64,000 nt of DNA from NCBI GenBank assembly GCA_944332025.1, contig CALVJB010000001.1:21629-85628 (forward strand), in the 5' to 3' direction. The stretch comes from an uncultured Bacilli bacterium. Lineage in GTDB: Bacteria; Bacillota_I; Bacilli_A; RF39; UBA660. The notes beneath the pieces are model-generated. The model saw only the letters and a list, made by a program, of their open reading frames with translations. It was not told the DNA's origin and did no database searches. The stretch's first letter is position 1, and the number at the start of each line of letters is the position of its first letter. Below, one piece after another: positions 17,368 through 64,000 of the stretch. Made by a program: the position numbers and the translations under genes.

Positions 17368-17386
17368 GAATAGGCTTAACCTATTC
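17368..17386 (-). terminator. Intrinsic terminator after rpoC
   Basis: gaatagg (17368-17374) pairs with cctattc (17380-17386), overlapping the stop codon. On the minus strand TTTTTTTT follows. Confidence 0.7.
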
Positions 17387-20300: not shown

Positions 20301-21013
20301 AGTTCTGGAGGTATTACGGGAATACAATCTAGAATCATCCATTCAGGTTTTTGATCAGAACGATAGAATGCATCTAGAACATCTAGTCTTTTTAATAGTC
20401 TTGTTCTTTTTTGTCCTTGAGCATTTTCTAGTTCCTTATTTATTTCATCAATATCATGTTTTAAGTCTACTTTCTTAAGTAGTTCTTTAATCGCTTCTGC
20501 ACCCATACCTACTTTGAATCCGTTACCATATTTTTCATAGTATGCACGATATTCTTTTTCTGATAGGGTTTGTTTGTTTTCTAAAGGAGCATTACCTTTA
20601 TCAATTACAACATAACTAACAAAGTATAATACTTCTTCTAGGTCTCTAGGACTCATATCAAGAACAAGTCCCATTCTTGAAGGAACTCCTTTAAAGAACC
20701 AGATATGAGAGACAGGACTAGCAAGTTCAATGTGTCCCATTCTCTCACGTCTTACTTTAGATTGAGTTACTTCAACACCACAACGGTCACAAACTATATT
20801 TTTATAACGAACTCTTTTGTATTTTCCACAAGCACATTCATAATCTTTAGTTGGTCCAAAGATTTTTTCACAGAATAAACCATCACGTTCTGGACGAAGA
20901 GTACGGTAGTTAATTGTTTCTGGTTTCTTTACTTCACCGTAACTCCATTCACGAATTTTTTCAGGAGAAGCGATACCAATTTTAATAGCATCAAATTTAT
21001 TTACTTCTATCAT
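17381..21013 (-). CDS. rpoC: DNA-directed RNA polymerase subunit beta'
   Basis: 1210 aa. Contains [12 protein letters not shown] (the catalytic motif), zinc-finger cysteines and full-length collinearity with beta'. Confidence 0.98.
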
Positions 21014-24000: not shown

Positions 24001-24630
24001 TAGTTTTAAGATATCGTCATCACTAGAAAGACCAAAAGCACGTAATAATGTTGTTAAGGTTACTTTTCTAGTTCTATCTATTCTTACATATAATACATCT
24101 CTAGCATCTGCTTCAAATTCTAGCCATGTACCACGTGTAGGAATGATTTGAGATGTGATTAACTCACGTCCATTCTTATCAATTTCTCTATTATAATAGA
24201 CACTTGGTGAACGAACTAATTGTGAAACAATAACACGTTCTGCTCCGTTTATTATAAATGTTCCACTATCAGTCATGATAGGCATATCACCTAAGAAGAT
24301 TTCTTGTTCTTTTACTTCGCCTGTCTCACGATTAAAAAGACGCACTTCTACCTTTAGTGGTGCTGCATAAGTAGTTTCTCTATCTTTACTAGCTTTGATA
24401 GAATATCTTGGTTCTTCAAAATGATAATCACCAAACTCTAAAGATAGTGTACCTGAAAAGTTTTCAACTGGAAATAAGTCTTCAAAAACTTCTTTAATTC
24501 CTGTTGTAATAAACCAATCATATGATTTCTTTTGAATCTCTAATAAATCCTTTAGCTCATAAGTATTTCTTATTCTTGAATAATTTCTTCTTTCACGTTT
24601 TTTTCCATATTTTACAATTTTATATGACAC
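21013..24630 (-). CDS. rpoB: DNA-directed RNA polymerase subunit beta, with ~70 aa acidic C-terminal extension
   Basis: 1205 aa with typical beta motifs ([22 protein letters not shown]). GTG start. Its stop overlaps the rpoC ATG (TAATG). Confidence 0.98.
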
Positions 24631-29625: not shown

Positions 29626-29798
29626 TTTTCCCTCCTATTTTTTAGTCAGTTTAAATAGTCCCTAGAAAGTTAAAAGTTCTCGAGATTTTCCCCAAGAACT
29701 TTTATTTATAGTAATTAGTCCTCGGTAGGATTTACGTTTTTACCTACTGTCTTGGGTACTTGTTAACTGATTTCTTTCTTATTATATTCTATAATCTT
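29626..29798 (-). promoter_or_regulatory. rplJ leader (candidate L10-leader-type autoregulatory RNA)
   Basis: A 173 nt untranslated gap between rplA and rplJ. Stems visible by eye are 29673-29680/29695-29702 and gtagg/cctac around 29725-29747. cccaaga (29691-29697) can alternatively pair with tcttggg (29750-29756). Firmicutes are known to carry an L10 leader at this position. Confidence 0.45.
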
Positions 29799-47692: not shown

Positions 47693-50600
47693 CTAGTTAT
47701 TTGTAGTAAAATCAAACCATTTTGGATTTTCTTTTACTGGTATTAAATTTATATTTTCATTATTATAATTACTGCTTACAGAAATATCTTGTTCTAAAAT
47801 GTTACTATATCTCCAAGACCAAGTATCTTTTTCAACTATTTTATATTTTCCATATGGCAATTTTAAAGTTTTTGGACTTTCTGCTGTTATTAATATTTCA
47901 TTTATTAGATCGTCATCATATAGTTGTATTATAAAAGTTTCATTTTTATCTGCTTCAATATTAATATTAATTGTTCCAAACAAGTCGAGTGTGGATAATC
48001 CATTTTCGTTTGTTTTTCCAGTAGCTAAACTTACTAGAGGTAAGTCTTTGTTTTGATATAATGTAATATCAATATTTGGTGGGTATTCTATACTTTGACT
48101 ATTTGAATTATATGCTGTGTCTTCTAATTTAAAAGTTATAGTTGGATCTTGATAATCAATATTTAAGTACGCAGACATTTTATTAGCAGATATTGACACA
48201 TCAATATCATTAGCACTTTTACTGTTATTAATAGTTAGAGGATTACCCTTGGAATCCGTAGCACTTATTGTTCTTATAATAGGATATAAATCCATATTTT
48301 GTTTAATCTCTAATTTATAAAAATCATCCCATTTAATAATTGTTCCATCTTTTTCCCATTGCCAGTTTTGAAATATCTCGTTAGGGTCTAAAGTGGCGTT
48401 TATTTCTTGATAAGGTTCAAAATCAATAATTGTTTCTATTTTGTTTCCTTCACTATCAATTACTTCACTGACAAATGAACGATTTTCATCTTGAGTTATT
48501 TCAGATGTGTAGATTATATTACCATTTTTATCGTGATAATTTACTTTATAATACTTTAAATAAACAGCTGTATAAGTAGTATCTTTTAAAGACTCATCTT
48601 TTTGAAGCAGATAGGTTTGATTTTCTGTTATTAAATTTCCTTTATTGTTATTATCTTGATAATTTTGATACCAACCAATAAATTTATAACCTTCTATTTT
48701 TTCAGCATTTATTTGAGTTTTATCATAGCCTACTTTTGTAATGTTTCTAATTTGATTTGGATCTAGACCACTAGAAAGTAAATAATCATCAATATTGGAA
48801 TTTACCTTTACTTTAATATTAATATATACAGGCCATAATTCTAATGAATTATTTATAATGGATGAAGAGTTTATTATATTTATAGAATTTAAGTCTTCAT
48901 CTATTATATGATATTTACCATTTTCAGGAGATTCATTAGTCCATCCATAAAATATATAGTTATCAATATTATAAGTAGGAGATGGCATATTACCTACAAT
49001 ATCTCCAGAATTTTTTATTTCTAATTTTGTTTCAGTATCATTTAAATGATATAACAAGATATTGGTACTATATTTTGCCATAAATGTATACTGTTTACCA
49101 GCTTCAATTTGACAAGTATAAGTTCCATTTGTATTAGGATTTATTATCTCTTCGGTATTGCCACTTACTTTTACTAAGGATGTTAGTTTGTACTTTTCTG
49201 AAGAACCTTCACTTATAAAGGTATCTGTATCAGGTGTTAAAGTAACAGTTGCTTTACCCGTTTCTGTTTCTTCTATCGTATATTTAGGGTTTGAAGGGAT
49301 GTTTATTCCTGGAGCTTTAAAATTGACATTGGTTGTTGTTTCCACATTGTACTTTGCATATACAGGATATACATCTATAGCCTCTTTTATTATTTCATCT
49401 TTAGATAATAAATATGGTTTTACTTTATTTATATCAGAGGTACAATAAGTATCATTTTCCACGTCATATATGTAATTCCACTCTAAAGAATTAGGGGTTA
49501 CTTCTTCTGATGATATCCATCCTAGAAAACTATAGCCATCTATTTTCATTTCTTCTTCTGATGGGGAAGCTTGTAAGGTTACTGTTTTATTTAGACTTTC
49601 TTTACTATCTTCTGGATTTGTATCGACCTCTTCATCTTGATGAAAAAATGGATATTTATATGTATGAGTTATATCTTCTTTCATGAATAAATTATCGTTA
49701 TACTTTCTTGTAACTGTTTTATATGTATTATCTTTTTTGTGAAAAGTTATATCTGCTGTTACCATTGCCATGCCTTTATACTGTATACTTGGATCTAATA
49801 CACCTGTATCCATTGGGTTATTTATATATGTCCAAGCTTTATTTGAGCGTTCTAAGGTCCAAAAGTTTAAATGATATTTTTCACTAATTGGTGTAAAAGT
49901 AAAAACACCTCCTGTAATTGATTTTGAGTCATCAATTGCCCCTGGACCTGGAAAATCTGTTGTTATAAATGCCTGGTAAAAAGTCTCTCCATTTGTATCG
50001 TCTGTTGTATTATGAGAATAAACTTTTAAAGGTTTTACTATATTTCCAGTAAAAGCGTCTGATTTATCGTCATTTCGATTATGGTCTATATGTTCTATAC
50101 CCCAGTGAGTTATTGATTCTTTGATATAACTTGGTCCACCAATGCTTATAAATTCACTATTATATGTTTGATATCTTGTCGTAAATAATTCAGATTCCGT
50201 AAATGATGCACCATTGTGTTGTCTAAAGGCTCTAACATAATATTCTACAGCATATTTGAATTTTGCAGTATAGGTGTGTTTTTGAGTTAAGTCTACGTTT
50301 TTCAATTCATAACTTTGGTCTTTAGATACCTTGACACCATTTTCATACCATCCAAGAAATTCGTATCCTTCTGGAAACTTTCCATCTATACCATTTACAG
50401 AGATAACAACATTATTATTTTCATTAAGTTTTATATTGGTAAAACCAACACCTTCTCTTTGACTTTCATCATTTAAATCGTCTTGTTCATGTCCCTCAAA
50501 AACAGTTGTTATATTTGATATTGAATCAACATAAACAGGATATAAATTCATTGTTTTAGTTATTTTGTCACCAGTTTCATAAAATTCATTTTGGTTTTTT

Positions 50601-52480
50601 AATGAAATCAATTCTGGTGTAGTGATACTGCTATAGCCTCCACCTTTTTCATTTGATTTAATTGTAGTCCAACCAATTAATTTGGCATTAGAACTATTTG
50701 GTTTTGTTAAAGGAGTTTCACAATTTATTTCGTCTTCATAGTCGTACCAATCATTATCTGTAATTTCAAACTTTTCTTTTCCTGTTTTAGGGTCTATAAT
50801 ATTTCCTTCAATATCATGGAACACTACTTTTGCTTGATAGTAAGCGACAAATAGATCATTATTTTTTATATCATTATTTTCTAAGGTAGCTTCGTCTTTG
50901 TATGGTTCATTTTTAAAGACTGTGTCAAAGTATAGATGGTTTTCTTCTGTACTATCAATTATGGAATCTTCTATTTTATACCAAGAAACAAATCTATAAC
51001 CTTCATTAGCTTTTGCTTTAATGGTTACTTTATTTTCTGTTGGTTTTATTCCTTGGATAGCAAATGAATAAGGATTTTTAGTTGATACTTCTTCATCAAC
51101 TAATTCTGTTTTTGATATTGTTACTTCTCCAGCTCCTTCAAAATCAAAAGTAGCAGCAATAGAGCTTCCATGTTTAAGTATTCCTTCATTAGGATCAATT
51201 ATCCATTTATTTACATGATTAGAATTATATTTTGTATTTCTAATAATATTCCCGTGAAGATCATAATTTTCGCTTTTCCAAAAATTTTTATCTATATAAT
51301 TTTCATCACTAAGTGGTCCATATGAAGAAGTAGAATCACTATTTCCTAATACTTTCATATCGACATCTGGATTTAAGCTTGGCTTAAAGTAAGTATTTTC
51401 TACTTTGCCCCCTTCATAAACATTTGTAATACCAGAAATGTTAACATTTTTTTGAATAGTAGGTATTACTAAAATTGAATTATACTGCTCTGATGTTGCT
51501 TTTCCAGCATAATGGCTTCGAATAATTTCGTTTCCATTGCCAAACATAGCACCTGTAATACCTCCGATATGACCAGTATTTCCAGCGCCTACAGAAACAT
51601 ATGTAGCACAATAGAAATTTAGTTCAGTGGTTGAATAACTATCAATAACTTTTGAAGTTCCATTCATTTGTCCAATTATTCCACCAACATATAATGTATT
51701 TCCACCAAGAGCTCCTACAGCGACATCATAGTATATTTTTACTAAGCCACCTTCTACTCTAGAGTATTCTACTTCAGTAGAATTTGAGGTTCCAACTAAT
51801 CCTCCTAAGTATAGACCTTTTCCTGATAATGCTGCTACACCTGCCGTATTGTTAGTATTTACCATAGTGTTTATCGATTCACAATTATATAAAACACTAT
51901 TATTAGCTTCACCAACAATAGCTCCACCTCTAATTCCACCATCTGTTATAAGAGATAAAACATTATTGGCAGCAGCAACAAATAAATGACTATCTTTAAT
52001 AGTAATATTTTCAAAAACAGTTCCTTCAGAATAACCTGCTACTAAACCGCCACGATAATCAGCATCTATATCAGCATTAATAATTGTTAAGTTTTTAATA
52101 ATTGCTCCATCACCAGTATAAGAAAACAGGCCTGTATCAGTTTTGGGTTCAGCTGTTTCTTCATATTTCAAATTGGAAATTGAATATCCTTGACCGTCAA
52201 ATACTCCTTTAAATGGATAATCACTACTTCCAAATGAAATATATGTAAAATCGCTATTTAAAAGTTCTTGTTGATCTTCTTCAGTAATGACTATGTCTTT
52301 GGTTAAAATAAATTTATCTGTTTGGTGACCACTTTGCCTTGTTAGTTCAGCAGCATTTACTAATTCTTCAAAATTACTGATTTCGTATACATCAGGACTA
52401 GCAAAAGAAATTTTAAAAGTACACATTATAACCATGCTAAAAACTATTATGAAAAGCAATCTTTTGTGGTTCCTTAACAT
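47693..52480 (-). CDS. Giant secreted surface protein: signal peptide, GLUG-motif beta-helix region, then multiple Listeria-Bacteroides (Flg_new) type repeats; no LPXTG
   Basis: 1595 aa. Signal peptide ...CTFKISFA/SPDVY. Repeated GGLVG-type motifs (RGGLVAGYS, RGGAIVGEA, LGGLVGTS, VGGIIGQM, IGGITGAM). At least six G(Y/F)xFxGW...LYPVY repeats (GYRFVSWY, GYEFLGWY, GYSFLGWI, YIFYGWT, GYKFIGWY). Confidence 0.75.
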   Translation of the reverse strand: MLRNHKRLLFIIVFSMVIMCTFKISFASPDVYEISNFEELVNAAELTRQSGHQTDKFILTKDIVITEEDQQELLNSDFTYISFGSSDYPFKGVFDGQGYSISNLKYEETAEPKTDTGLFSYTGDGAIIKNLTIINADIDADYRGGLVAGYSEGTVFENITIKDSHLFVAAANNVLSLITDGGIRGGAIVGEANNSVLYNCESINTMVNTNNTAGVAALSGKGLYLGGLVGTSNSTEVEYSRVEGGLVKIYYDVAVGALGGNTLYVGGIIGQMNGTSKVIDSYSTTELNFYCATYVSVGAGNTGHIGGITGAMFGNGNEIIRSHYAGKATSEQYNSILVIPTIQKNVNISGITNVYEGGKVENTYFKPSLNPDVDMKVLGNSDSTSSYGPLSDENYIDKNFWKSENYDLHGNIIRNTKYNSNHVNKWIIDPNEGILKHGSSIAATFDFEGAGEVTISKTELVDEEVSTKNPYSFAIQGIKPTENKVTIKAKANEGYRFVSWYKIEDSIIDSTEENHLYFDTVFKNEPYKDEATLENNDIKNNDLFVAYYQAKVVFHDIEGNIIDPKTGKEKFEITDNDWYDYEDEINCETPLTKPNSSNAKLIGWTTIKSNEKGGGYSSITTPELISLKNQNEFYETGDKITKTMNLYPVYVDSISNITTVFEGHEQDDLNDESQREGVGFTNIKLNENNNVVISVNGIDGKFPEGYEFLGWYENGVKVSKDQSYELKNVDLTQKHTYTAKFKYAVEYYVRAFRQHNGASFTESELFTTRYQTYNSEFISIGGPSYIKESITHWGIEHIDHNRNDDKSDAFTGNIVKPLKVYSHNTTDDTNGETFYQAFITTDFPGPGAIDDSKSITGGVFTFTPISEKYHLNFWTLERSNKAWTYINNPMDTGVLDPSIQYKGMAMVTADITFHKKDNTYKTVTRKYNDNLFMKEDITHTYKYPFFHQDEEVDTNPEDSKESLNKTVTLQASPSEEEMKIDGYSFLGWISSEEVTPNSLEWNYIYDVENDTYCTSDINKVKPYLLSKDEIIKEAIDVYPVYAKYNVETTTNVNFKAPGINIPSNPKYTIEETETGKATVTLTPDTDTFISEGSSEKYKLTSLVKVSGNTEEIINPNTNGTYTCQIEAGKQYTFMAKYSTNILLYHLNDTETKLEIKNSGDIVGNMPSPTYNIDNYIFYGWTNESPENGKYHIIDEDLNSINIINSSSIINNSLELWPVYINIKVKVNSNIDDYLLSSGLDPNQIRNITKVGYDKTQINAEKIEGYKFIGWYQNYQDNNNKGNLITENQTYLLQKDESLKDTTYTAVYLKYYKVNYHDKNGNIIYTSEITQDENRSFVSEVIDSEGNKIETIIDFEPYQEINATLDPNEIFQNWQWEKDGTIIKWDDFYKLEIKQNMDLYPIIRTISATDSKGNPLTINNSKSANDIDVSISANKMSAYLNIDYQDPTITFKLEDTAYNSNSQSIEYPPNIDITLYQNKDLPLVSLATGKTNENGLSTLDLFGTININIEADKNETFIIQLYDDDLINEILITAESPKTLKLPYGKYKIVEKDTWSWRYSNILEQDISVSSNYNNENINLIPVKENPKWFDFTTNN

Positions 52481-52485
52481 TTTAT

Positions 52486-53058
52486 CTACTCCTTATCTGG
52501 CCATCCTTCCGCTTGTAAAACATCTTCAGCATTATTTTTAGATTGTACTGCTTGGAGGTCTGCTTTAAATTTGTAACTACTATCTGGATAATTACTTGAA
52601 ATTTTATCAATATTAAAATTTATTTTTTTTAACAATGTTTCAGTACATTCATTAGGCTTTAAAGCTTTATGATAATAATAATATTCATTTTTGTATATCC
52701 AGCCTTGATTGTTTGTTACATAATCAACCAAATTATTTGCATCAAATTCTTGATTATTTTTATCAAAGCCTTTAGTATTTAAAGAAATTCTTAAATATAT
52801 GTCTTGTTTTCCAACGTTACATGCTTTAATAAAACGATCAACAGATGAATCAGTTGTAATATTAAATTCATTATCATTATTAATTTCTATTTCTTCACCA
52901 TTATTGTCAATAGTAGTTTGAATTAATTTCACTTTAATATTTCCAAATGTAATTATATTGTTTGCAGTTTCATTGGTTGTTTTAAAGGCTATAGTTCCTG
53001 ATATGCATAACAATATAATTAAAAAAAGGAAAATAATCACATATTTATGTTTGTTCAT
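52486..53058 (-). CDS. SipW-dependent-type signal peptide protein (TasA/camelysin-like)
   Basis: 190 aa. N-terminal TM segment, then SGTIAFKTTNETANNIITFGNIKVKLIQ. Confidence 0.55.
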   Translation of the reverse strand: MNKHKYVIIFLFLIILLCISGTIAFKTTNETANNIITFGNIKVKLIQTTIDNNGEEIEINNDNEFNITTDSSVDRFIKACNVGKQDIYLRISLNTKGFDKNNQEFDANNLVDYVTNNQGWIYKNEYYYYHKALKPNECTETLLKKINFNIDKISSNYPDSSYKFKADLQAVQSKNNAEDVLQAEGWPDKE

Positions 53059-53074
53059 ATTTTATCCTTTAATA

Positions 53075-53725
53075 CTAATTAATTCCAAATTCTGTTTTAG
53101 CTGCATTTTCTATGGTTTCATCAGGTATTAGTGTTCCTTCACCATCTTTAGCTTGATGTAAGAATACAGATACTTTAATTTCTGTTTTTTTACTGTCTTC
53201 TACAGTAAAATCACTAAGTTCAGCTGTATCATCAGCTTTGATAGTACTAAATAATGGTGTGATTGTCCATGTGTCTTTACTGTCTTGTCCTTGTAGTCCG
53301 TTAGTATATTTAAATAGTCCACTTGTATATGTTTCACTTTCTAAACCACTTGTTGCTTCTACAGCTTCCCATCCTTCATTTATTGTAAAATATATTTTAT
53401 TTGAAAAATTGTTTTCTACATATACATATACTGCAGCATCTTCACTACCAGCACCTATTCCAACATATGGATCTTTTTCAAAAGATACTCCTGGAAGAAG
53501 CTTGTGTTCCTCTTCGACATTCCAGCTTGGTTCATAAATATTGCCATTGATTGTTATAGATTCTTCTGGATTAGTTGGTGAAGTAGTTGGAGGTTTAAAA
53601 TCACCGACTGTAAATGTGTTTGTGATAGAACTTGTTTTTGTAAGCCAGGCGATTGTTCCTGTTGTAGCGATTACTAATACTAATATTAAACCTATCAATA
53701 ATGTTAGTTTTTTCTTATTTTTCAT
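53075..53725 (-). CDS. SipW-dependent-type signal peptide protein (TasA/camelysin-like)
   Basis: 216 aa. MKNKKKLTLLIGLILVLVIATTGTIAWLTKTSSITNTFTVGDF matches the SipW-cognate signal class. Its start overlaps the sipW stop by 11 nt. Confidence 0.6.
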   Translation of the reverse strand: MKNKKKLTLLIGLILVLVIATTGTIAWLTKTSSITNTFTVGDFKPPTTSPTNPEESITINGNIYEPSWNVEEEHKLLPGVSFEKDPYVGIGAGSEDAAVYVYVENNFSNKIYFTINEGWEAVEATSGLESETYTSGLFKYTNGLQGQDSKDTWTITPLFSTIKADDTAELSDFTVEDSKKTEIKVSVFLHQAKDGEGTLIPDETIENAAKTEFGIN

Positions 53726-54179
53726 TTGGGTACCTCTTTTCTAAAATATAATTTATAAATAACATAAGAATTGTAATAATAATGACAATATAGATTCCTG
53801 GTGGTTCTTTTATTAAGCTTACTATATATCCTAGATAAGGAATACAGAAAACTGGTTTTCCTATCAATGATGAGAATTTCACTGGTTCAGCATCATGAAT
53901 AATATTTCCATTTTCATCTTTATTATTAATACCTTGAGTTTTGAACTCTTGGTTTTGCCTATCTATTTCATAAACTTGATGAGTAGCAACAGAACCATTT
54001 TTGTAAAAAGTTATGATGTCATTTTTCTTAATTGTGTTTGGATCAATATTTTTTACATATATTACTGAACCCACTGGATATAAAGGTTTCATACTACCAC
54101 TTGTAACAACATATGTTTTTATATTCACTAATAATGGAGCAACAGTCAATAAAACCAATATAATTTCTAGTAATATCAA
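53715..54179 (-). CDS. sipW: Signal peptidase I, SipW (archaeal/ER) type
   Basis: VVTSGSMKPLYPVGSVIYVK (catalytic Ser), ATHQV (His), TQGINN and a C-terminal TM segment are collinear with B. subtilis SipW. The TTG start at 54179 is uncertain (see findings). Confidence 0.75.
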   Translation of the reverse strand: MILLEIILVLLTVAPLLVNIKTYVVTSGSMKPLYPVGSVIYVKNIDPNTIKKNDIITFYKNGSVATHQVYEIDRQNQEFKTQGINNKDENGNIIHDAEPVKFSSLIGKPVFCIPYLGYIVSLIKEPPGIYIVIIITILMLFINYILEKRYPNEK

Positions 54180-54429: not shown

Positions 54430-55491
54430 TTAATTGTTTGATTTTTTTATATATTTTAACTCTCCCATACGTGATGTAGGGATGAAACCAGCTTCACTTG
54501 CAATAACATCAGGAATTCTATTAACAATGGCTGCACAAGTTAATCTTACTGTATCTGGTTTTTCAATTACTAGAGTTGTATCAGGTTCACCATAGATTGT
54601 CCACTCATTTCTATCAAACTCATCTTTATTGTAAACTTTACCAATACATTCTGTTTCTAGAGTAATACCTTCTTTTGTTTCTGTTGTAACAACTGCACTC
54701 ATACCTGTAGCCATGCCGGATTTAACTGTCATTCCTAAAGTAGATGATTCAATATCATAATCATTGAACTGAGGTACACATTTCTGACGTTGGCTTACTA
54801 CTGTTAAACCTAATTTATCGCAAAGCCAACCATTAACATTCCACATATATGATGGAGAGTAAGCACCACTTTCTATTACTTTCATTCTTTCTTCATCACT
54901 TATTTCATCGGCACTAGCTACTTGGGCATCAAACTCTTCTTTTGTTAGCCCTGCTCCATGAGCTTTAGCAAGAGCGATACCATAGTCTTCTACATTATAA
55001 GATGAACTTCCTTTTATCTTAGTAATATTATGACTTGAGCCTATTAGGGTAGTAATCAAATTACCCCAGAAAGCATCTTGATAACCACTACCTGTAATTG
55101 TACAATTATTCTCTTTAGCAAGTTTATCAATTTTTTCTGTTAAAGTAGGGTTAGAATTTATTGGGAAGAATGCTTCTTCACATGTAGTAATAGCATTAAC
55201 TCCACATTTAGCACATACCATTAAGGCATCTTCTACATCTGCAAGTAAACTCATAGTTGTAACGATAACACAATCAGGTCTTAATTCAGTTAGAAGTCCT
55301 TCTACTTTATCAACACTATCAACAACTACTCCTACTTTATCTCCTCCCATTATTTCTCCGATATCTTTTCCTATGACATCTGGATTAATATCTACTGCAC
55401 CAACTATAGTACCACCATTTTCTATGACAAATTTCATAGTATAGACACTCATTTTTCCACAACCATATTGGAATATTCTTAATCCTTTCAT
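54430..55491 (-). CDS. DapB-like NAD(P)-dependent amine dehydrogenase family protein (2,4-diaminopentanoate dehydrogenase-like)
   Basis: N-terminal Rossmann segment RIFQYGCGKMS...GAVD. Length and C-terminal domain layout resemble the Ord/native amine dehydrogenase family, recognised from memory only. Start trimmed to the ATG at 55489-55491. Confidence 0.45.
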   Translation of the reverse strand: MKGLRIFQYGCGKMSVYTMKFVIENGGTIVGAVDINPDVIGKDIGEIMGGDKVGVVVDSVDKVEGLLTELRPDCVIVTTMSLLADVEDALMVCAKCGVNAITTCEEAFFPINSNPTLTEKIDKLAKENNCTITGSGYQDAFWGNLITTLIGSSHNITKIKGSSSYNVEDYGIALAKAHGAGLTKEEFDAQVASADEISDEERMKVIESGAYSPSYMWNVNGWLCDKLGLTVVSQRQKCVPQFNDYDIESSTLGMTVKSGMATGMSAVVTTETKEGITLETECIGKVYNKDEFDRNEWTIYGEPDTTLVIEKPDTVRLTCAAIVNRIPDVIASEAGFIPTSRMGELKYIKKSNN

Positions 55492-55556
55492 TTTTACCAT
55501 CCTTTCTAAATTCATTATAACATTTTAACTCTGTCAAAATATGTAATTAACAAAAA

Positions 55557-55580
55557 AAGTTATACTTTTTTGCATAACTT
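55557..55580 (-). terminator. Intrinsic terminator after the 74 aa gene
   Basis: aagttat (55557-55563) pairs with ataactt (55574-55580). On the minus strand TTTTTTG follows. Confidence 0.5.
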
Positions 55581-55651
55581 TACAGTTTTGTTTTATATAA
55601 ATGTTTTAACTTATTTATATTTAAATGACGTATTGTCTAAATAATTTTTAT

Positions 55652-55876
55652 CTATAATAACATCATATCTACATTTTTATATAACTCACTAATAATAATT
55701 TTGTATTTATCGTTAGAAATTAATTGATATAATTCATCATTATATTCATATACAACCTTAAATTTATGATACTTTTCATTAAACAATAAATAATATATAT
55801 TCCCTTCGAAATCTATTTTATTTAAAACTTTATAATAAATGTCATTGAAAACAACTATGCTATTTAGTTTTTGCAT
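55652..55876 (-). CDS. Small hypothetical protein, translationally coupled partner of the tandem RNxxxH protein
   Basis: 74 aa and rich in Tyr/Asn/Lys. Its ATG lies 17 nt inside the 3' end of the upstream gene. Confidence 0.5.
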   Translation of the reverse strand: MQKLNSIVVFNDIYYKVLNKIDFEGNIYYLLFNEKYHKFKVVYEYNDELYQLISNDKYKIIISELYKNVDMMLL

Positions 55877-57854
55877 TTCGTTTTTCCTCTTTTTCCTCTT
55901 TCATTAGTGAAGTTAAATAAAGTGATATAATGGTGTCCAGTTGGCTTTTTGCAGTTATTTTTTTTAGACAATTAACTACTTTTGAATTATCAGATAATTT
56001 ACTTGTGAAAAAGTCCAACATATATAATCGAAGTTCATTTTTTAAAATAGTGATGACAGTTGCTAATTTGTTTTTTTCCATATACTGTACCATTTGTTCT
56101 GATAAATTATATTCTGAAGAATGTTTATATACATCATTAATCGATATAGGTTCTAGTGATTTTTTTTCATCAATGTTAATTTGTCCAAAAACCTTTTTTT
56201 CATTATGAATAATTGCACAAAGTATTCTTTCTAATTCATTTGAATTATTTAAATAATTACCTAAAATTAATTGTTCAAAATAATTATAATTACTGAAAGT
56301 ATATATTGTTGTAAGGTGGCTATCTTGTTTTAATTTTTGTAAATCTTCTTCGGTTATGCTTTTCTTTATAAGTTCTTCAGATTCAAAGCTATATCTATTT
56401 TTTAAATATAACATTTTTGACAGTAAATACGTATTATCTTTATCTTTAAGATATTCAGAAAAATTATCTATACCAGTTTTTACATTATTATACCATATTT
56501 TAGGTCCTTGCAAAAGAACATCTATATAGTCTTCTTCACTATACTCATATCCATAATATTTGCATATATAATCTAAAATAAATATATTATTATCTGGAAG
56601 ATAAAAGGTTAAAAACTCTCTTATATTATTTGGATTTTCATATAAATAACTAGAAATTTTATGATTTTCTATCATATAATTTAAAACTTCGTTTTCATCC
56701 ATATTGTAGAATTTTCTTCTATATACCGAAAAATACTCAGAAAATGAATTTTTTGATATGGAAAGCGATGTTCTATACATTAAATTGTTCATAATTATAT
56801 GTGTTTCTATAAAAGTAGAAACTCCTTCTTTAAAATAATTATTTAATAAAATTTCATCAATTTTTCCATATGGCATTTCAATGTTAAAATATTTGCCATT
56901 TTTTTTGTCATAATCATTAAATTCAATATAATTTTCTTTAAAAATTACAAATCCATGTGAAACAGCATTTCTTAAATGAGCCATTAACAAATTGTTTGGA
57001 ATAAATATTTCTAGTTCAGTGTCTTTGGCCATAAAACTTGGGTCCCAAACTATATTTTTTGCACCTTCTATATCCTCAATAAAATATCCTTTTTTAGCTA
57101 GTGTTAATATATCTTTTTTATATAATATTTCATCTTCAACCGATTTATATATCATATTATTGTCTTCATAAAATGATTTTATATTACGCTGTGACTCATC
57201 GTTTATTAATCTTGTATCATTAACTTTAACATCTGAAAAATCTATACTATAATCTATAAAATTCATAAATTTATCATAAATACTTTCCTTGTTATAAGAA
57301 AATAATAATGTCATTAATAATATATAACCGTATTTTTTCCCTTTAAGTTCTTTACCACTTGTTATTTTTTCTATCATTTCAAAACATTCTATTACAACAT
57401 TATTATTAGTATTTTCAATACTATTTGAAACTTTTTTTAATAGATTTATTAAATCTTTTTTTTCAATGTGCATAGTAGTATTTCTGTTTTTTTCAGGATT
57501 ATTAGGCATTGTATCATTAGAAATTATTAAATTGTTATCCTTAATTGTTATTCTTCCAGATCCGTGCACAAATGAATTTCTAATTGTTTTTAATATTTTT
57601 CTATTATTTTGTCCCACAATATAATTTGATTCATTTCTTAAAAATGTCACTCTTTTTAATTCTTCAGTGCAATTATATAAACCTCTATCTTGTTTAATAT
57701 AATTATCATTATTTGCAATTAATATAATTAAATAGAGATATAAAATCAGGTTTTCCTTATCATTTGAGTCATTTATGCCATACCCTGAATCATTAATCAA
57801 ACTTATTCCAATACTATATATTAAAGGATTTAATATATTCTTGAAATCTTTCAT
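55860..57854 (-). CDS. Hypothetical protein with two RNxxxHG motifs (candidate tandem-HEPN RNase)
   Basis: 664 aa from the ATG at 57852-57854 behind AAGGTGA; the track ORF starts at GTG 57863. IRNSFVHG is encoded at 57561-57584 and LRNAVSHG at 56952-56975. No other recognisable domain. Confidence 0.6.
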   Translation of the reverse strand: MKDFKNILNPLIYSIGISLINDSGYGINDSNDKENLILYLYLIILIANNDNYIKQDRGLYNCTEELKRVTFLRNESNYIVGQNNRKILKTIRNSFVHGSGRITIKDNNLIISNDTMPNNPEKNRNTTMHIEKKDLINLLKKVSNSIENTNNNVVIECFEMIEKITSGKELKGKKYGYILLMTLLFSYNKESIYDKFMNFIDYSIDFSDVKVNDTRLINDESQRNIKSFYEDNNMIYKSVEDEILYKKDILTLAKKGYFIEDIEGAKNIVWDPSFMAKDTELEIFIPNNLLMAHLRNAVSHGFVIFKENYIEFNDYDKKNGKYFNIEMPYGKIDEILLNNYFKEGVSTFIETHIIMNNLMYRTSLSISKNSFSEYFSVYRRKFYNMDENEVLNYMIENHKISSYLYENPNNIREFLTFYLPDNNIFILDYICKYYGYEYSEEDYIDVLLQGPKIWYNNVKTGIDNFSEYLKDKDNTYLLSKMLYLKNRYSFESEELIKKSITEEDLQKLKQDSHLTTIYTFSNYNYFEQLILGNYLNNSNELERILCAIIHNEKKVFGQINIDEKKSLEPISINDVYKHSSEYNLSEQMVQYMEKNKLATVITILKNELRLYMLDFFTSKLSDNSKVVNCLKKITAKSQLDTIISLYLTSLMKEEKEEKRNAKTK

Positions 57855-57920
57855 GTATATCACCTTATTTAATTATATCACATTTTTTTAATATAACTAT
57901 CTATTTCTATACAAATAAAA

Positions 57921-57944
57921 GCTAGTCTAAATAATACACTAGCC
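57921..57944 (-). terminator. Intrinsic terminator after secA
   Basis: gctagt (57921-57926) pairs with actagc (57939-57944). On the minus strand TTTTATTTG follows. Confidence 0.55.
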
Positions 57945-57979
57945 CTCGTATTTTAAAATTGCAAACTTTTATCAACAAG

Positions 57980-60472
57980 TTACTTTCCACAGCATTGTTT
58001 GTACTTCTTTCCACTCCCACATGGACATGGGTCATTTCTACCTACTTTTTTTACTTTCTTAGGTGTTTTCTTTGTATCTTTAACATCATTAGTCTGTTGA
58101 TTCTTTGCAACTTGTTTTCTTTCAATATTTTGTCTAATTTCTGCTTTAAGTAAGAATACTGTAATATCTCTATCTATTTTTTGAAGCATATCATCAAATA
58201 GTCCATAACCTTCTGTAGTATATGCTCTTAGAGGGTCATCTTGTCCATATTGACGAAGATAGATACCTTCTCTTAAGTGACTCATTACATTAATTTGTTC
58301 CATCCAGTAGTTATCTATAACTTGTAGTGATAAAGCTTTTTCAAATTCATTACTAATTTCTACTGGCACTTCTTTAATCTTAGCTTCATATTCTTCTTTA
58401 GCTTTTTCATAAATATATTCTATTATATCATCAGCATCTCTATTTTCTAATTCAACTTTACTTATATCATTCTTTAGTAAGTTTTCATTAGCAAAGTCTG
58501 TAATACTTTGTAATTCTTCATCAGTAATTGTACTATCTGCATTTCTTGATTTAACTAAATCTGTAACATGATTATGAATAGAGTTTAATACTGTTTCATG
58601 AATAGATTCACTATCTAGGATTTCATTACGTTTACCATACATGATTTCTCTTTGAGTATTCATAACATCATCATATTGTAGTAAATGTTTTCTAGCATCA
58701 AAGTTATTTCCTTCTACACGTTTTTGAGCAGTTCCTATTGCTTTTGTAAAGGTTTTACTTTGAATAGCTTGATCTCCAAAACCAAAGCTTTTCATCATTT
58801 CTCTAATGTGTTCGCTACCGAATCTAATCATTAAGTCATCTTCCATAGAGACAAAGAACTGAGTATAACCTGGGTCTCCTTGACGACCAGAACGTCCTCT
58901 TAACTGATTATCAATACGACGTGATTCATGACGTTCAGTACCTATTACACAAAGTCCTCCAAGTTCTCTTATTTCATCTGATAGTTTGATATCGGTACCA
59001 CGTCCTGCCATGTTAGTAGCGATGGTAACAGAACGATGTTCTCCGATTTTAGAAATAATTTCTGCTTCACGAGCATGGTTTTTAGCATTTAATATTTCAT
59101 GAGGAATATGAGCTTTCTTTAATAAGTCACTAATTAATTCACTAGTTTCAATGGCTATAGTACCAATTAAAACTGGTTGTCCTTTATCGTAACGACTCTT
59201 TACCTCATTAATAATAGCTTTATATTTAGCACTACGTGTAGCAAATACTAAATCTGGGGCATCTACTCTTATTACTGGTTTATTAGTAGGTATTTCTATA
59301 ACATACATATTATAAATATCTCTAAATTCTTCTTCTTCTGTTTTAGCAGTACCAGTCATACCTGATAGTTTCTTATACATTCTAAATAAGTTTTGGAAGG
59401 TAATAGTTGCAAGTGTTTTAGTTTCTTGGTTAATCTTAACTCCTTCTTTAGCTTCTATCGCTTGATGAAGTCCATCACTATAAGCTCTTCCTTTCATTAA
59501 ACGTCCAGTAAATTGGTCTACTATTACTATTTCATCATCTTGAACAACATAGTCTACATCTTTTTTCATAGCATAGTTAGCTCGTAGGGCTTGGTTAATA
59601 TAATGAAGTAAAGTAGCATTTTCTATTTCATATAGATTTTTAATCTTAAACATTTTCTCTGCTTTTTCACTACCTTCATCAGTAAGTGATACACTGATGG
59701 TACTTTTACCTGTCTCATCACAGATATAATCAGTCTCTTCTTTAAGAGATTTTGCAAATTTATCAGCATCTATATATAGGTTGGCACTATGTTGTGCTCC
59801 TCCTGATATTATTAATGGAGTTCTTGCTTCATCTATTAGAATAGAGTCAACCTCATCGACGATAGCGAAGTTTAAAGGACGTTGTACTCTATTTTCTTTT
59901 CTAATTACCATATTATCTCTTAAGTAATCAAAACCTATTTCATTATTAGTTGAATATAAAATATCACAGTTATAAGCTTCTTGTTTCTCTTTAGGAGACA
60001 TATCTCTTGTATTAACACCTACAGTTAAACCAAGAAATCTATGTATTCCTCCCATCCATTCAGCATCACGAGTTGCAAGATATTCATTAACTGTAATAAT
60101 ATGAACACCTTTTCCTTCTAAGGCATTAAGATAGGCAGGCATAACACAAGTTAAAGTTTTACCTTCACCAGTTTTCATTTCTGCTATATTACCATAATGA
60201 ATAGCAAGTGCACCTAGTACTTGAACATAGAATGGTTTTTCTCCTATAACACGATATGCTGCTTCTCTTGCAACAGCGAAACCTTCTACTAAGATATCTT
60301 CTAGTGTTTCTCCGTTTGCTAATCTTTCTTTAAACTCTTCTGTTTTATGTTTTAATTCATCATCACTTAACTTAGTCATCTCTTCATCAAGTGCGACTAT
60401 TTTGTCAGCTTGTGCTGTAAACTTTTTTAATTCTTTATATTCATGATCAAATAGTTTTCTAAATAATCCCAT
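57980..60472 (-). CDS. secA: Preprotein translocase ATPase SecA
   Basis: 830 aa. MKTGEGKTL Walker A, a DEVD box, and the C-terminal zinc motif CPCGSGKKYKQCCG. Start taken at M4 behind AAGGAG. Confidence 0.97.
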   Translation of the reverse strand: MGLFRKLFDHEYKELKKFTAQADKIVALDEEMTKLSDDELKHKTEEFKERLANGETLEDILVEGFAVAREAAYRVIGEKPFYVQVLGALAIHYGNIAEMKTGEGKTLTCVMPAYLNALEGKGVHIITVNEYLATRDAEWMGGIHRFLGLTVGVNTRDMSPKEKQEAYNCDILYSTNNEIGFDYLRDNMVIRKENRVQRPLNFAIVDEVDSILIDEARTPLIISGGAQHSANLYIDADKFAKSLKEETDYICDETGKSTISVSLTDEGSEKAEKMFKIKNLYEIENATLLHYINQALRANYAMKKDVDYVVQDDEIVIVDQFTGRLMKGRAYSDGLHQAIEAKEGVKINQETKTLATITFQNLFRMYKKLSGMTGTAKTEEEEFRDIYNMYVIEIPTNKPVIRVDAPDLVFATRSAKYKAIINEVKSRYDKGQPVLIGTIAIETSELISDLLKKAHIPHEILNAKNHAREAEIISKIGEHRSVTIATNMAGRGTDIKLSDEIRELGGLCVIGTERHESRRIDNQLRGRSGRQGDPGYTQFFVSMEDDLMIRFGSEHIREMMKSFGFGDQAIQSKTFTKAIGTAQKRVEGNNFDARKHLLQYDDVMNTQREIMYGKRNEILDSESIHETVLNSIHNHVTDLVKSRNADSTITDEELQSITDFANENLLKNDISKVELENRDADDIIEYIYEKAKEEYEAKIKEVPVEISNEFEKALSLQVIDNYWMEQINVMSHLREGIYLRQYGQDDPLRAYTTEGYGLFDDMLQKIDRDITVFLLKAEIRQNIERKQVAKNQQTNDVKDTKKTPKKVKKVGRNDPCPCGSGKKYKQCCGK

Positions 60473-61648: not shown

Positions 61649-62242
61649 ATGAAAGAAGCATTTTTAAATCATACTATGAACTTTATTGCAAGTAATCAAG
61701 GAAACTTAAACGATGAAGAAAAAGAAAAATTACAATATGGCTTAGAAGGTTTATATATGACTATAACTAAGCTTGTAGTAATCTTTCTAGTAGCTTTTCT
61801 TCTAGGATTTATTAAAGAGTTTATTATTACGTTAATACTTTTTAATATAATTAGATTCCCTGGTTTTGGATTTCATGCAAGTAAGTCTATAGTTTGTTTA
61901 ATTACGAGTACACTTTTGATATTAGGACTACCATATTTATTTACTAGTATCGAAGTTAGTCTTAATATTAAGATAATTCTATGTATAGTTTCAGTTATAA
62001 CATTTATAATATGTGCTCCTGCTGATACTTGGAAAAGACCTTTAACTAATGAAAAGAAAAGAGTACTTAGAAAAGTAGTGGCTTGTAGTTTGGCAGTTTT
62101 ATATAGTGTACTTATTATAGTGTTTAATGGTATGGAAATTAGTAATTTATTGATGGCAGCTTTACTTATTGAAACAATTTTAATATCTCCTATTATGTAT
62201 TTAATATTTAAAGAGCCATATAGAAATTATAAAAAGGTTTAA
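61649..62242 (+). CDS. agrB: Accessory gene regulator protein B (AgrD-processing membrane peptidase)
   Basis: 197 aa polytopic membrane protein with IRFPGFGFHAS (the conserved His region) and a later Cys. It is followed by an AgrD-like small ORF. Confidence 0.85.
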   Translation: MKEAFLNHTMNFIASNQGNLNDEEKEKLQYGLEGLYMTITKLVVIFLVAFLLGFIKEFIITLILFNIIRFPGFGFHASKSIVCLITSTLLILGLPYLFTSIEVSLNIKIILCIVSVITFIICAPADTWKRPLTNEKKRVLRKVVACSLAVLYSVLIIVFNGMEISNLLMAALLIETILISPIMYLIFKEPYRNYKKV

Positions 62243-62290
62243 ACATTTTATGTTTAAATAAATAGTAATAAAGAAAGGAATGAGAAGGAA

Positions 62291-62410
62291 ATGAAAAAAA
62301 GAATGGCTAAAGTTCTAGCAGCTGTTGCTATGTTAGCTACTGCAAGTGCTAGTATGGGATGTGTTTGGTTCTGTGCAGCTGAACCTAGAGCATTAAAAAA
62401 TATGGACTAA
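62291..62410 (+). CDS. agrD: Autoinducing peptide precursor AgrD
   Basis: Absent from the ORF track because it is only 39 aa. Sequence MKKRMAKVLAAVAMLATASASMGCVWFCAAEPRALKNMD. RBS GAAGGAA. It has an amphipathic leader, a Cys-containing core and a charged tail with EP, 49 nt after agrB. Confidence 0.8.
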   Translation: MKKRMAKVLAAVAMLATASASMGCVWFCAAEPRALKNMD

Positions 62411-62434
62411 AAAATTCGCTTAAAAACGAATTTT
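62411..62434. terminator. Bidirectional terminator between agrD and the convergent kinase gene
   Basis: aaaattcg (62411-62418) pairs with cgaatttt (62427-62434), flanked by A/T runs. Confidence 0.65.
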
Positions 62435-62435
62435 T

Positions 62436-63719
62436 TTATTTTATATAGATTTTTTGTATAAAATAATCATTTAAAAATACTTGTTCTGATTTTAACCATT
62501 TTGTTTTTGATAATACTTTATTTGCATAATACAAACCTTTCCCATGTTCTCCTCCTTTAGTAGTAAAGCCAGTTTTCTTCATTGTTTTTAAAGGAACTAA
62601 TTCCTTGTAAGTGTTTGAAATTGTAAAATTAATTATTTTGTTTAATTCATAAACTTCTAAGGTTACAGTTTTCCTTTTTGACATTTCAGCTGCTTCTAAG
62701 GCGTTATCTAAATATATTCCTAAAATAATACATAATTGGCGAAGACGTTTTTCTGATATTTTTTTTAATAATGTATTAACTTTTGGACTTACTTCTATTA
62801 TTAATTTAACATTTTTATTCTTGGCTAGTGCTACTTTATAATACAGTAATCCTTTTAGTCCACCTTTAGGTATATTCTTTAAATCTTCAATTGCTTGCTC
62901 ATCAATGATAATACTGAATTTTAGCATTTCATCTATTTTATTGATTACTTTCTTATTATTTGTCATGTTCCTAATAATTGACAAATTATTTTTTAATTCA
63001 TGTCTATACATCTGTTCATCATCTATCCAATTTTCAAATGTTTGAACATAATCAAATAAAATTTCATACTTATCTTTTAATCTACCATAATTATTTAATT
63101 CTGAAATATAAAAATAATATAAAATAAAAAGAAAGAAAATACTCAATATGGTTATTATATAGTGTGTATTTAATTTAAATATTTCTGTGATATTAAAGAA
63201 TGCTATTATAATGGTAAATAAGCATATTACAACAAATGTAATAATATTATAATTAGGAGTTTTTTCAATTTTTTTGTGTAAATAATTAATTTTATTTTTT
63301 ATACTTGGAATCATAGAAATTAAAAAGGCTATACATCCTATTAAAACAGTATTTAAAATAACTATATAATTTGTTGTTCTCAATTCCTCATATGTCAAAA
63401 ATAAGGAATTTATAGTTGCTATTAGTATATCTACAACGCCTATTAAAATCATTCCATAACTGCAAATATAAATAGATGATAATAAGTTAATTTTAAAGTA
63501 ATTCCTAAATAGCATAATTGCTAAAATATAGGTTATTAATGAAGTAAACATATTATATTCTGTAGTGTAAAAAAGTAAAGTCGGGATAGATAAAACCAAA
63601 ACTATTAGAATAGTTTGAAGGGTTATCTTGTGTTTTAATTTTAAACTTTTTTGTACAATAAGCAATAGAATTATTTCTAAAAATATTGTTCCTATGAATT
63701 TAGCTATTATTAGTGACAT
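62436..63719 (-). CDS. agrC: AgrC-like sensor histidine kinase (HPK10 type, GHKL ATPase)
   Basis: Six or seven N-terminal TM segments, the H-box YRHELKNNL, and C-terminal N and G boxes (LDNALEA, GGEHGKGLY). Start at the ATG at 63717-63719; the track uses TTG 63725. Confidence 0.8.
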   Translation of the reverse strand: MSLIIAKFIGTIFLEIILLLIVQKSLKLKHKITLQTILIVLVLSIPTLLFYTTEYNMFTSLITYILAIMLFRNYFKINLLSSIYICSYGMILIGVVDILIATINSLFLTYEELRTTNYIVILNTVLIGCIAFLISMIPSIKNKINYLHKKIEKTPNYNIITFVVICLFTIIIAFFNITEIFKLNTHYIITILSIFFLFILYYFYISELNNYGRLKDKYEILFDYVQTFENWIDDEQMYRHELKNNLSIIRNMTNNKKVINKIDEMLKFSIIIDEQAIEDLKNIPKGGLKGLLYYKVALAKNKNVKLIIEVSPKVNTLLKKISEKRLRQLCIILGIYLDNALEAAEMSKRKTVTLEVYELNKIINFTISNTYKELVPLKTMKKTGFTTKGGEHGKGLYYANKVLSKTKWLKSEQVFLNDYFIQKIYIK

Positions 63720-64000
63720 ACTCAATCAACTCCTTCTTACCTGACCTAGATATTAAGTTAGTAGTAACACCATTATCAAATAGTACTTCATTTTCTTTTA
63801 TATCGTAACTTCTTATTTTATCTGTATTTAAAATTAGACTCTTATGTACTTTTAAGAATCTCTTATCTAATTCTTTTGATATGGCATTTAATGTGAATGG
63901 TGCTTTAAATGTACCATAGTCAGTATGTATTATACATCTTTTACTATCTTGTTCTTTTTCAATAAAGATTATGTTCTTTAGCTCTATTTTGTATAAAGTA
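63700..64000 (-). CDS. agrA: LytTR-family response regulator, 3' part (gene runs off the right edge)
   Basis: Hand translation of the minus strand gives ...LYKIELKNIIFIEKEQDSKRCIIHTDYGTFKAPFTLNAISKELDKRFLKVHKSLILNTDKIRSYDIKENEVLFDNGVTTNLISRSGKKELIEYVTNNS*, a LytTR DNA-binding domain. It overlaps the kinase start by 20 nt. Confidence 0.8.
   Translation of the reverse strand, partial: TLYKIELKNIIFIEKEQDSKRCIIHTDYGTFKAPFTLNAISKELDKRFLKVHKSLILNTDKIRSYDIKENEVLFDNGVTTNLISRSGKKELIEYVTNNS

Follow-up and report, generated by a model that had tools for sequence, protein, structure and literature searches.

A predicted single-chain tandem-HEPN protein of the pEK499_p136 type and its small acidic partner in an uncultured Bacilli bacterium

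Large HEPN RNases encoded ahead of a small co-transcribed partner are known from the type II toxin-antitoxin systems RnlA-RnlB and LsoA-LsoB, which are chromosomal or mobile and act in phage exclusion, and in which the downstream genes encode the small acidic inhibitors RnlB and LsoB. Here we describe a locus of similar organisation, in which a gene for a 664-aa protein with two RNxxxHG motifs is followed by a gene for a small acidic protein of 74 aa. It lies in a 64,000-nucleotide stretch of contig CALVJB010000001.1 (positions 21,629 to 85,628) from an uncultured Bacilli bacterium; this whole stretch is referred to as the window, and all positions given below are those of the window unless another locus is named.

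The active site of HEPN nucleases is formed when two Rx4-6H motifs come together (PMC12165695; bioRxiv 10.64898/2026.02.22.705581). Among the HEPN nucleases compared here, only Cas13 has both halves in one chain, and the others dimerise. It has been proposed that Cas13 originated by fusion of two defence HEPN genes found together with a non-coding RNA (ncRNA) (PMC12165695). A single-chain tandem HEPN protein outside type VI CRISPR systems is unusual and bears on the origin of Cas13-like architectures. In DARNA (PD-T7-3), an abortive-infection HEPN tRNase, a helical C-terminal domain binds single-stranded DNA, which leads to activation (bioRxiv 10.64898/2026.02.22.705581). Finally, the pEK499_p136 family (PF18736) is known only from a computational census published in 2013, which linked it to restriction-modification (R-M), ART/Macro and Pgl operons (Anantharaman et al. 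2013, PMC3710099).

The two motifs and their HEPN domains

The large protein carries its two RNxxxHG motifs 203 residues apart, exactly where the initial annotation of the window had placed them. Two such motifs appeared in none of 20,000 shuffles of the protein, and two or more RNxxxH motifs in 0.025% of the shuffles. A word-indexed search of 5.8 billion proteins yielded only a 98% identical copy and one homologue of 48% identity, and an exhaustive HMMER profile search of 1.84 billion cluster representatives (E ≤ 1e-3) recovered 23 representative relatives. The 17 longest of them (456-889 aa, mostly 650-890) were aligned with the window protein, giving a family alignment of 18 sequences with 20-48% identity. 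In this alignment, both motifs are conserved: R295, H300 and G301 of motif 2 and H97 of motif 1 are invariant, and R92 of motif 1 is retained in 15 sequences, being replaced by T or S in the three divergent members P0017, P0021 and P0022. Further conserved positions are N188 and E190 (in the 'CYNKES' helix), D205, S207, P286, E343 and P408. The third Rx4H sequence, RNTTMH, which had been suspected to be a chance occurrence, is indeed chance, for it is not conserved and reads RNTTIK in the 48% homologue.

Two more candidates in the large gene were rejected, namely R543x6H as an additional motif, which is not conserved in the family alignment, and a conserved antisense open reading frame (ORF), which is a by-product of the conserved coding strand. 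Three short database proteins (P0006, P0019 and P0020, 121-143 aa) match only the N-terminal or the motif-2 part of the family and then continue into unrelated sequence; they may represent copies that are truncated or disrupted, or else chimeric ends of contigs.

According to profile-profile comparison, both motif regions are HEPN domains of the pEK499_p136 family. When compared with PF18736 using hhalign, HEPN-1 (aa 1-150) aligned with a probability of 92.5% (E 4.7e-7, 98 columns) and HEPN-2 (aa 151-350) with a probability of 97.8% (E 9e-13, 49 columns), and a separate run for HEPN-2 was in agreement (E 1.3e-10). After removal of an insert from HEPN-2, the probability was 98.4% (E about 1e-14, 84-102 columns), and the alignment to single-domain pEK499_p136 proteins spanned the whole domain, now including the 'YNKES' helix. 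The HEPN census describes a variable insert between helices 2 and 3 (PMC3710099), and the position of the present insert agrees with it. The comparison set consisted of 18-21 single-domain PF18736 proteins (21 collected, ~175 aa each). Among the relatives, the motif-1-equivalent region of P0023 scores above the Pfam gathering threshold of PF18736 (29.2 bits, cut-off 26.6), P0012 carries a precomputed PF18736 assignment, and the 173-aa protein P0024, whose match to the family profile lies at motif 2, is itself a genuine member of PF18736. The window protein also gave a weak PADLOC match, at motif 1 (aa 86-108), to the model of reverse transcriptase (RT)-associated HEPN (RTasHEPN). The initial annotation had regarded both motif regions as HEPN-like, and the profile search bears this out; it had also likened the RNxxxH form to that of Cas13 and Abi_2, and here the HEPN type proved to be that of pEK499_p136 instead.

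The profiles of HEPN-1 and HEPN-2 also align with each other (probability 93%, E 3.3e-7, 58 columns). An internal duplication, suggested earlier from the resemblance of the two segments, is thus recovered at the profile level, but not in pairwise comparison, where the score of 52 has to be set against 42.5 ± 6.8 in shuffles. Because HEPN-2 is nearer to stand-alone PF18736 proteins than to HEPN-1, the two halves may have originated either by duplication or by fusion of two genes, and both fit the sequences equally.

An AlphaFold2 (AF2) model calculated from a 3-sequence alignment was unusable, with a predicted local distance difference test score (pLDDT) of 47, and the 18-sequence alignment was used instead. 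The resulting model is confident, with a pLDDT of 79.5 and a predicted template modelling score (pTM) of 0.78. In the model, each motif closes a helix (aa 84-96 and 287-299) that is followed by a three-stranded beta-meander and then by another helix, and for this reason the two HEPN halves are predicted to have a common layout. The helical C-terminal region that follows them had been noted to fit no family, and it is still without a family match: Pfam, NCBIfam, PDB and Foldseek searches gave no match, profile-profile comparison of the C-terminal 314 aa with PF18736 gave no HEPN signal, and in the exhaustive search nothing matched the C-terminal part alone, save one fragment of the same gene. 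Transmembrane segments in this region were considered and rejected, as only marginal hydrophobic stretches occur in a few members and none in the window protein.

The partner gene and the transcription unit

The coupling of the 74-aa ORF to the large gene, noticed initially in the window alone, is conserved across homologues, both in the pairing itself and in the tight junction. Next to P0002, P0003, P0005 and P0010, too, the large gene is overlapped or abutted at its 3' end by a small ORF, and the one that follows P0002 shares 42% identity with the window partner. A hidden Markov model (HMM) built from five partners finds an ORF 3' of three members that were not used for training, at L011 (E 1.8e-17), L015 (E 3.3e-8) and L012 (E 6.4e-7). 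In all, eight of nine distinct members have a partner directly 3' of the large gene, which it either overlaps or abuts, and the junction between the two genes measures -41 to +2 nt in 9/9 loci measured. The search with the partner profile returned 54 proteins (E ≤ 0.01), which have no Pfam annotation save one marginal match, and three partners located on long contigs have a 690-745-aa gene immediately upstream at every locus. All-against-all clustering of the neighbours at 13 loci revealed no third gene family that recurs.

The partners are acidic, with a pI of 4.1-4.6 in most of them and 5.7 in the window. Their best score against DUF1292 (PF06949) was 19.6 bits (E 0.0018), obtained for P0045 over profile positions 7-71 of 75, and the window partner scored 11.6 bits; the Pfam cut-off is 24 bits.

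At the loci encoding P0012 (L012:3050-3310, and also L013 and L014), the partner frame is open for ~72 codons, but its first in-frame ATG, GTG or TTG comes only at codon ~30. One base out of frame, at an A5 run, there is a good ribosome-binding site with an ATG (GAGGTGATGAAAAATA...); the region is identical in three independent assemblies. This frame could have a non-canonical start, be subject to slippage or phase variation, or belong to a decaying partner.

In the window, both genes are present where they had been annotated, with the 17-nt overlap as described. Of the two lengths initially allowed for the larger product, 664 and 667 aa, the former is favoured. The ORF as first listed (55860..57863, minus strand) starts with a GTG at 57863, but because this GTG sits in the AAGGTG ribosome-binding site and homologues begin with MKDFK or MQDYK, the ATG at 57854 is the likely true start and the 667-aa form is disfavoured. 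The ribosome-binding site of the partner gene, GAGG, lies within the 3' end of the large gene. The coordinates of all features are collected in Table 1.

Table 1. Features of the gene pair in the window
Feature	Position	Strand	Basis or details
Large gene, 664-aa tandem-HEPN protein	55860..57854	minus	stop codon included
HEPN-1, aa 1-150 (core aligned to pEK499_p136, aa 31-142)	57405..57854	minus	hhalign
Motif 1, IRNSFVHG (R92, H97), aa 91-98	57561..57584	minus	family alignment
HEPN-2, aa 151-345, including the conserved 'YNKES' helix, aa 177-197	56820..57404	minus	hhalign
Insert of ~75 aa within HEPN-2, aa ~206-280, mixed helix/strand (AF2)	57015..57239	minus	excision extends the alignment
Motif 2, LRNAVSHG (R295, H300, G301), aa 294-301	56952..56975	minus	family alignment
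C-terminal all-helical region, aa 346-664 (~320 aa)	55863..56819	minus	no match outside the family
Partner gene, 74-aa protein, 17-nt overlap with the large gene	55652..55876	minus	sequence and family comparison
Ribosome-binding site AAGGTG, 6 nt ahead of ATG 57854	57861..57866	minus	read in sequence
Extended -10 promoter TGTGATATAAT of the two-gene unit	57872..57882	minus	read directly in sequence
Intrinsic terminator of the pair	55549..55592	minus	-12.8 kcal/mol, z -4.2, then U7
secA terminator, upstream of the pair	57909..57951	minus	-14.5 kcal/mol, z -4.0, then U-tract

The extended -10 element TGTGATATAAT is located 26 nt 5' of the start codon of the large gene; an identical element is also found 5' of the 48% homologue in L001, and TGnTAnnnT elements occur 26-56 nt 5' of the start in 7 of 12 loci. 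The two hairpins that had been proposed to bracket the pair, the secA terminator and the terminator of the pair itself, both fold well and each is followed by a U-tract. Promoter and terminators occupy the intergenic spaces of 116 and 136 nt on either side. Since the pair has an extended -10 promoter of its own and is bracketed by both terminators, it is predicted to be an independent transcription unit, shielded by the secA terminator from upstream transcription.

As had been observed initially, the locus is free of CRISPR arrays, repeats and cas genes: searches for a CRISPR array, a tandem array or repeats found none within the window, the Rfam scan contained no CRISPR repeat family, and at the locus itself (55300-58100) there was no Rfam match even at E ≤ 1.

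Genomic context and mode of action

The pair follows csp-hpf-secA in the window and precedes a gene resembling 2,4-diaminopentanoate (DAP) dehydrogenase and a block of surface-protein genes. Its GC content is 21-22%, compared with 30-32% in the flanking genes. At other loci the pair lies between adhE and mfd or between spo0A and rpsI. In L017 it is found beside gerA genes, and a Mob_Pre relaxase and a serine recombinase are encoded at a distance of 3-5 kb (L017:13689-17133), and in L023 it is 2 kb from ORF6N and a 1201-aa nSTAND3 NTPase, with helix-turn-helix (HTH) genes there too (L023:10693-16123). An identical pair occurs in L017 and L019 with different downstream neighbours. The locus scan was run with a sub-clade alignment; the 18-sequence alignment had no sufficiently conserved stretch. 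Because the housekeeping neighbours differ at each locus, the pair is judged to be a movable accessory cassette and not part of a conserved housekeeping context. A consistent housekeeping context of the homologues had been named initially as an argument against a toxin or abortive-infection effector; the neighbours are housekeeping genes, but different ones each time. The accompanying survey for defence islands found a few loci near mobile or conflict genes, while the association with defence islands, and the link of the gene pair to defence contexts in general, is weak.

Decayed copies were also found. The large gene is frameshifted by a 4-nt deletion in L020 (L020:7817-10041) and has at least two frameshifts and an in-frame stop in L027 (L027:10001-12226), and in both loci the partner is intact. 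A separate observation concerns L022:3880-6532 (= L004:3079-5626), where the pair and rpsI-rplM are separated by an extra cassette of three unannotated genes (654, 148 and 82 aa). Since this cassette is missing from the same site in L021, the site is a variable hotspot; the similarity of the 82-aa product to the partner family is weak (HMM E 0.0096).

From these results, a hypothesis regarding the mode of action may be formulated, in which the large protein is an RNase toxin with both HEPN domains in one chain and is kept under control by its partner; our confidence in this is slightly better than even. The locus would be a self-contained, horizontally mobile two-gene module. One chain would supply both Rx4-6H motifs, most likely as an intramolecular pseudo-dimer analogous to that of Cas13, with HEPN-2 as the strictly conserved catalytic half and HEPN-1 as the more divergent partner half. 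The small acidic protein would be made from the same mRNA by translational coupling, and would most likely bind the large protein and keep it inactive, that is, act as an antitoxin or immunity protein. Such a role is suggested because the partner is acidic, coupled and encoded downstream, which is by analogy the organisation of RnlA-RnlB-type pairs (rnlA-rnlB, lsoA-lsoB). A stress or phage cue, probably acting via the C-terminal domain or via loss of the partner, would then result in RNA cleavage and growth arrest; by analogy with DARNA/PD-T7-3, the orphan helical C-terminal domain is a candidate sensor. The decayed large genes beside intact partners in L020 and L027 fit the loss of a toxin. 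The indications of a toxin or abortive-infection role, and of an antitoxin role of the partner, are circumstantial; that the large protein cleaves RNA, pairs its two sites within one chain, is toxic, is neutralised by the partner and acts against phages are predictions.

A number of observations weigh against this hypothesis. The assignment of the HEPN fold rests on sequence profiles, since a whole-chain Foldseek search of the AF2 model against PDB and BFVD gave only noise (nothing better than E = 0.2) and no HEPN structure, and a PDB sequence search with the PF18736 alignment detected no solved relative. The window protein alone has no match in Pfam, NCBIfam or PDB, and none in PHROGs. The loss of R92 in 3 of the 18 aligned sequences is an objection to an obligatory four-residue composite site, and HEPN-2:HEPN-2 homodimers are, given this loss, possible. 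With regard to the partner, there is no such ORF downstream of P0013 (L016), where a convergent gene is found instead, and the intact large gene of P0012 stands beside a partner frame without a canonical start, which is awkward for an essential antitoxin. Most neighbours are housekeeping and not defence genes. No relative was found by tblastn against phage and plasmid records or in two scans of IMG/VR viral contigs, and PADLOC v2 matched no characterised system in the 18 members, giving weak matches only (RT-associated HEPN in 3 of 18, best E 0.0038; the candidate model PDC-M13C in one, E 0.0022). Lastly, the pseudogenes of L020 and L027 come from metagenome assemblies and may partly be sequencing or assembly errors.

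Some of these observations are easier to accommodate if, with the architecture unchanged, the partner does not inhibit the RNase but is needed to activate or target it, as a co-factor, sensor or adaptor similar to the accessory proteins of some type VI systems. We consider this explanation unlikely, albeit the strongest of the alternatives. With an activator, P0013 without a partner and P0012 without a canonical partner start would be easier to tolerate, and linkage and coupling would suit an obligate co-factor equally well; moreover, the partner weakly resembles DUF1292, a family without established function. The decayed large gene beside an intact partner, however, suits an antitoxin better, and RnlB and LsoB, the small acidic downstream partners of HEPN toxins, are inhibitors.

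It is distinctly improbable, in our judgement, that the large protein is a lineage-specific housekeeping enzyme of RNA processing or turnover with a small subunit, and not a conflict system. The family is extremely rare and patchy (the 23 representatives among 1.84 billion proteins), it occupies a different position in each genome with a GC content below that of its neighbours, pseudogenised copies exist, and the pEK499_p136 family is tied to R-M and Pgl systems (PMC3710099). All this has to be balanced against a chromosomal location flanked by core genes (secA/hpf; adhE/mfd; spo0A/rpsI) and against the lack of matches in the phage, plasmid and viral-contig collections and in PADLOC.

Even less probable is that the protein is a scaffold or signalling component whose HEPN domains lack catalytic activity or have a target other than bulk RNA, e.g. 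cyclic oligonucleotides. The catalytic activity of the large protein is a prediction from sequence, motif 1 is degenerate in some members, and some HEPN proteins degrade cyclic oligoadenylates (bioRxiv 10.64898/2026.02.22.705581); nevertheless, the invariant R, H and G of motif 2 together with R-N-x3-H of motif 1 in 15/18 sequences point to selection on catalytic residues, and no cyclase or CARF/SAVED partner was found at any of the 13 loci. An RNA-guided or RNA-regulated single-chain HEPN nuclease, using either a Cas13-like guide that went unrecognised or an AbiF-like RNA antitoxin, is hardly credible, for although two HEPN domains per chain are otherwise a hallmark of Cas13, itself proposed to stem from fused defence HEPN genes co-occurring with an ncRNA (PMC12165695), there are neither repeats or arrays nor Rfam matches at E ≤ 1 at the locus, the short intergenic spaces are filled by the promoter and terminators, no similarity to Cas13 or Abi_2 is seen by sequence or fold, and the position of a regulator is taken by a conserved protein partner.

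The rest of the window contains several features unrelated to the above. The gene downstream of the pair (54430-55515) encodes a 361-aa protein that matches the C-terminal domain of 2,4-diaminopentanoate dehydrogenase (E 1.1e-8) and is metabolic. The block of secreted or surface proteins at 47693-54179 includes a 1595-aa protein with InlB B-repeats, two ~200-aa ORFs with signal-peptide-like N-termini, and a 154-aa ORF with SGSMKP, which by eye is typical of signal peptidase; these three smaller ORFs had no Pfam match at 1e-3. An agr-like quorum-sensing pair with a GC content of about 22% is located at 61649-63725, consisting of AgrB (61649-62242, plus strand, E 1.6e-32) and a membrane GHKL histidine kinase (62436-63725, minus strand). 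S10-Clostridia and L10 ribosomal-protein leaders (Rfam gathering matches) were found at 1481-1579 and 29661-29774, and ORFs of the size of rpoB and rpoC lie near them at 17381-24630; on account of these leaders and ORFs, the window is core chromosome of a low-GC Firmicute.

Relation to described HEPN systems

In the literature searched, we found no description of any of four features of the family, namely the tandem architecture, the insert, the orphan C-terminal domain and the dedicated partner. A far-reaching interpretation would be that the locus represents an independent, non-CRISPR origin of the Cas13-type fused-HEPN, switchable intramolecular RNase site, derived from domains of the pEK499_p136 and not the AbiD/F type and controlled not by a guide RNA but by a new protein antitoxin together with an orphan helical sensor domain, and thus a new anti-phage abortive-infection system of gut Firmicutes; we put this forward tentatively and think it doubtful as a whole. 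If true, a free-living, CRISPR-independent tandem HEPN protein would have arisen from another HEPN family, so that the fusion occurred more than once; the two proteins (664 aa + 74 aa) would make a compact model in which to examine how an HEPN site within one chain is switched off and on, and gut and rumen Firmicutes would gain a new pair of toxin and partner in their defence and toxin-antitoxin repertoire, comprising an acidic partner of uncharacterised fold and a putative sensor domain that is an orphan. If the locus is merely another HEPN toxin-antitoxin pair, the gain would be incremental, a new architecture for PF18736.

The window protein resembles pEK499_p136 proteins in the pre-motif helix, the h-R-N-A-x-x-H-G motif, the beta-meander and the next helix, all of which are aligned. 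The PF18736 members retrieved are single-domain proteins of ~175 aa, whereas the window family adds a second domain, the ~75-aa insert in HEPN-2, the 320-aa orphan C-terminus and the partner gene, and the R-M, ART, Macro and Pgl neighbourhoods reported for pEK499_p136 are not seen at its loci.

With Cas13, including the compact Cas13an, the protein shares two RNxxxH HEPN domains in one polypeptide, which suggests an intramolecular composite site (PMC12165695). Unlike Cas13, however, it is encoded without a CRISPR array, cas gene or repeat, it has a protein partner and not a CRISPR RNA (crRNA), and its HEPN subtype differs, as Cas13an groups with AbiD/F. Membership in Cas13 was rejected, since there was no PDB sequence match with the single protein or the profile, no Foldseek match and no array. 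AbiD/AbiF is likewise an RNxxxH HEPN abortive-infection effector with a co-encoded antitoxin, the inhibitor role being predicted only in the present case; its regulator is an ncRNA (RF03085), whereas the candidate regulator in the window is a protein. Membership in Abi_2 (AbiD/AbiF) was rejected as well, with no Abi_2 Pfam match in the 18 members and no RF03085 at the locus. The likening of the window protein to Cas13 and Abi_2 is to be taken as analogy only.

DARNA provides a plausible model for the orphan C-terminal domain, as it consists of an N-terminal HEPN nuclease followed by a ~300-aa helical, non-catalytic sensor, but it is encoded by a single gene, assembles into dodecamers and contains one HEPN domain; neither PD-T7-3 in PADLOC nor DARNA in the PDB sequence search matched the window protein. 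A HEPN-MNT toxin-antitoxin system was considered and rejected, the partner having no NTP_transf match and no such gene recurring nearby.

RnlAB and LsoAB are likewise composed of two co-transcribed, tightly coupled genes, and in the window family the pairing is kept across divergent homologues. RnlA differs in having one HEPN domain and in dimerising, the window partner is of a different family, with a resemblance to DUF1292 that stays below the Pfam cut-off, and Pfam and NCBIfam searches gave no homology to the RnlA or RnlB families. Because defining features of Cas13, Abi_2, RnlA, HEPN-MNT and DARNA were looked for and were not found in it, the window protein is not a member of any of these systems, and the most suitable class for the pair is that of HEPN toxin or abortive-infection-like modules.

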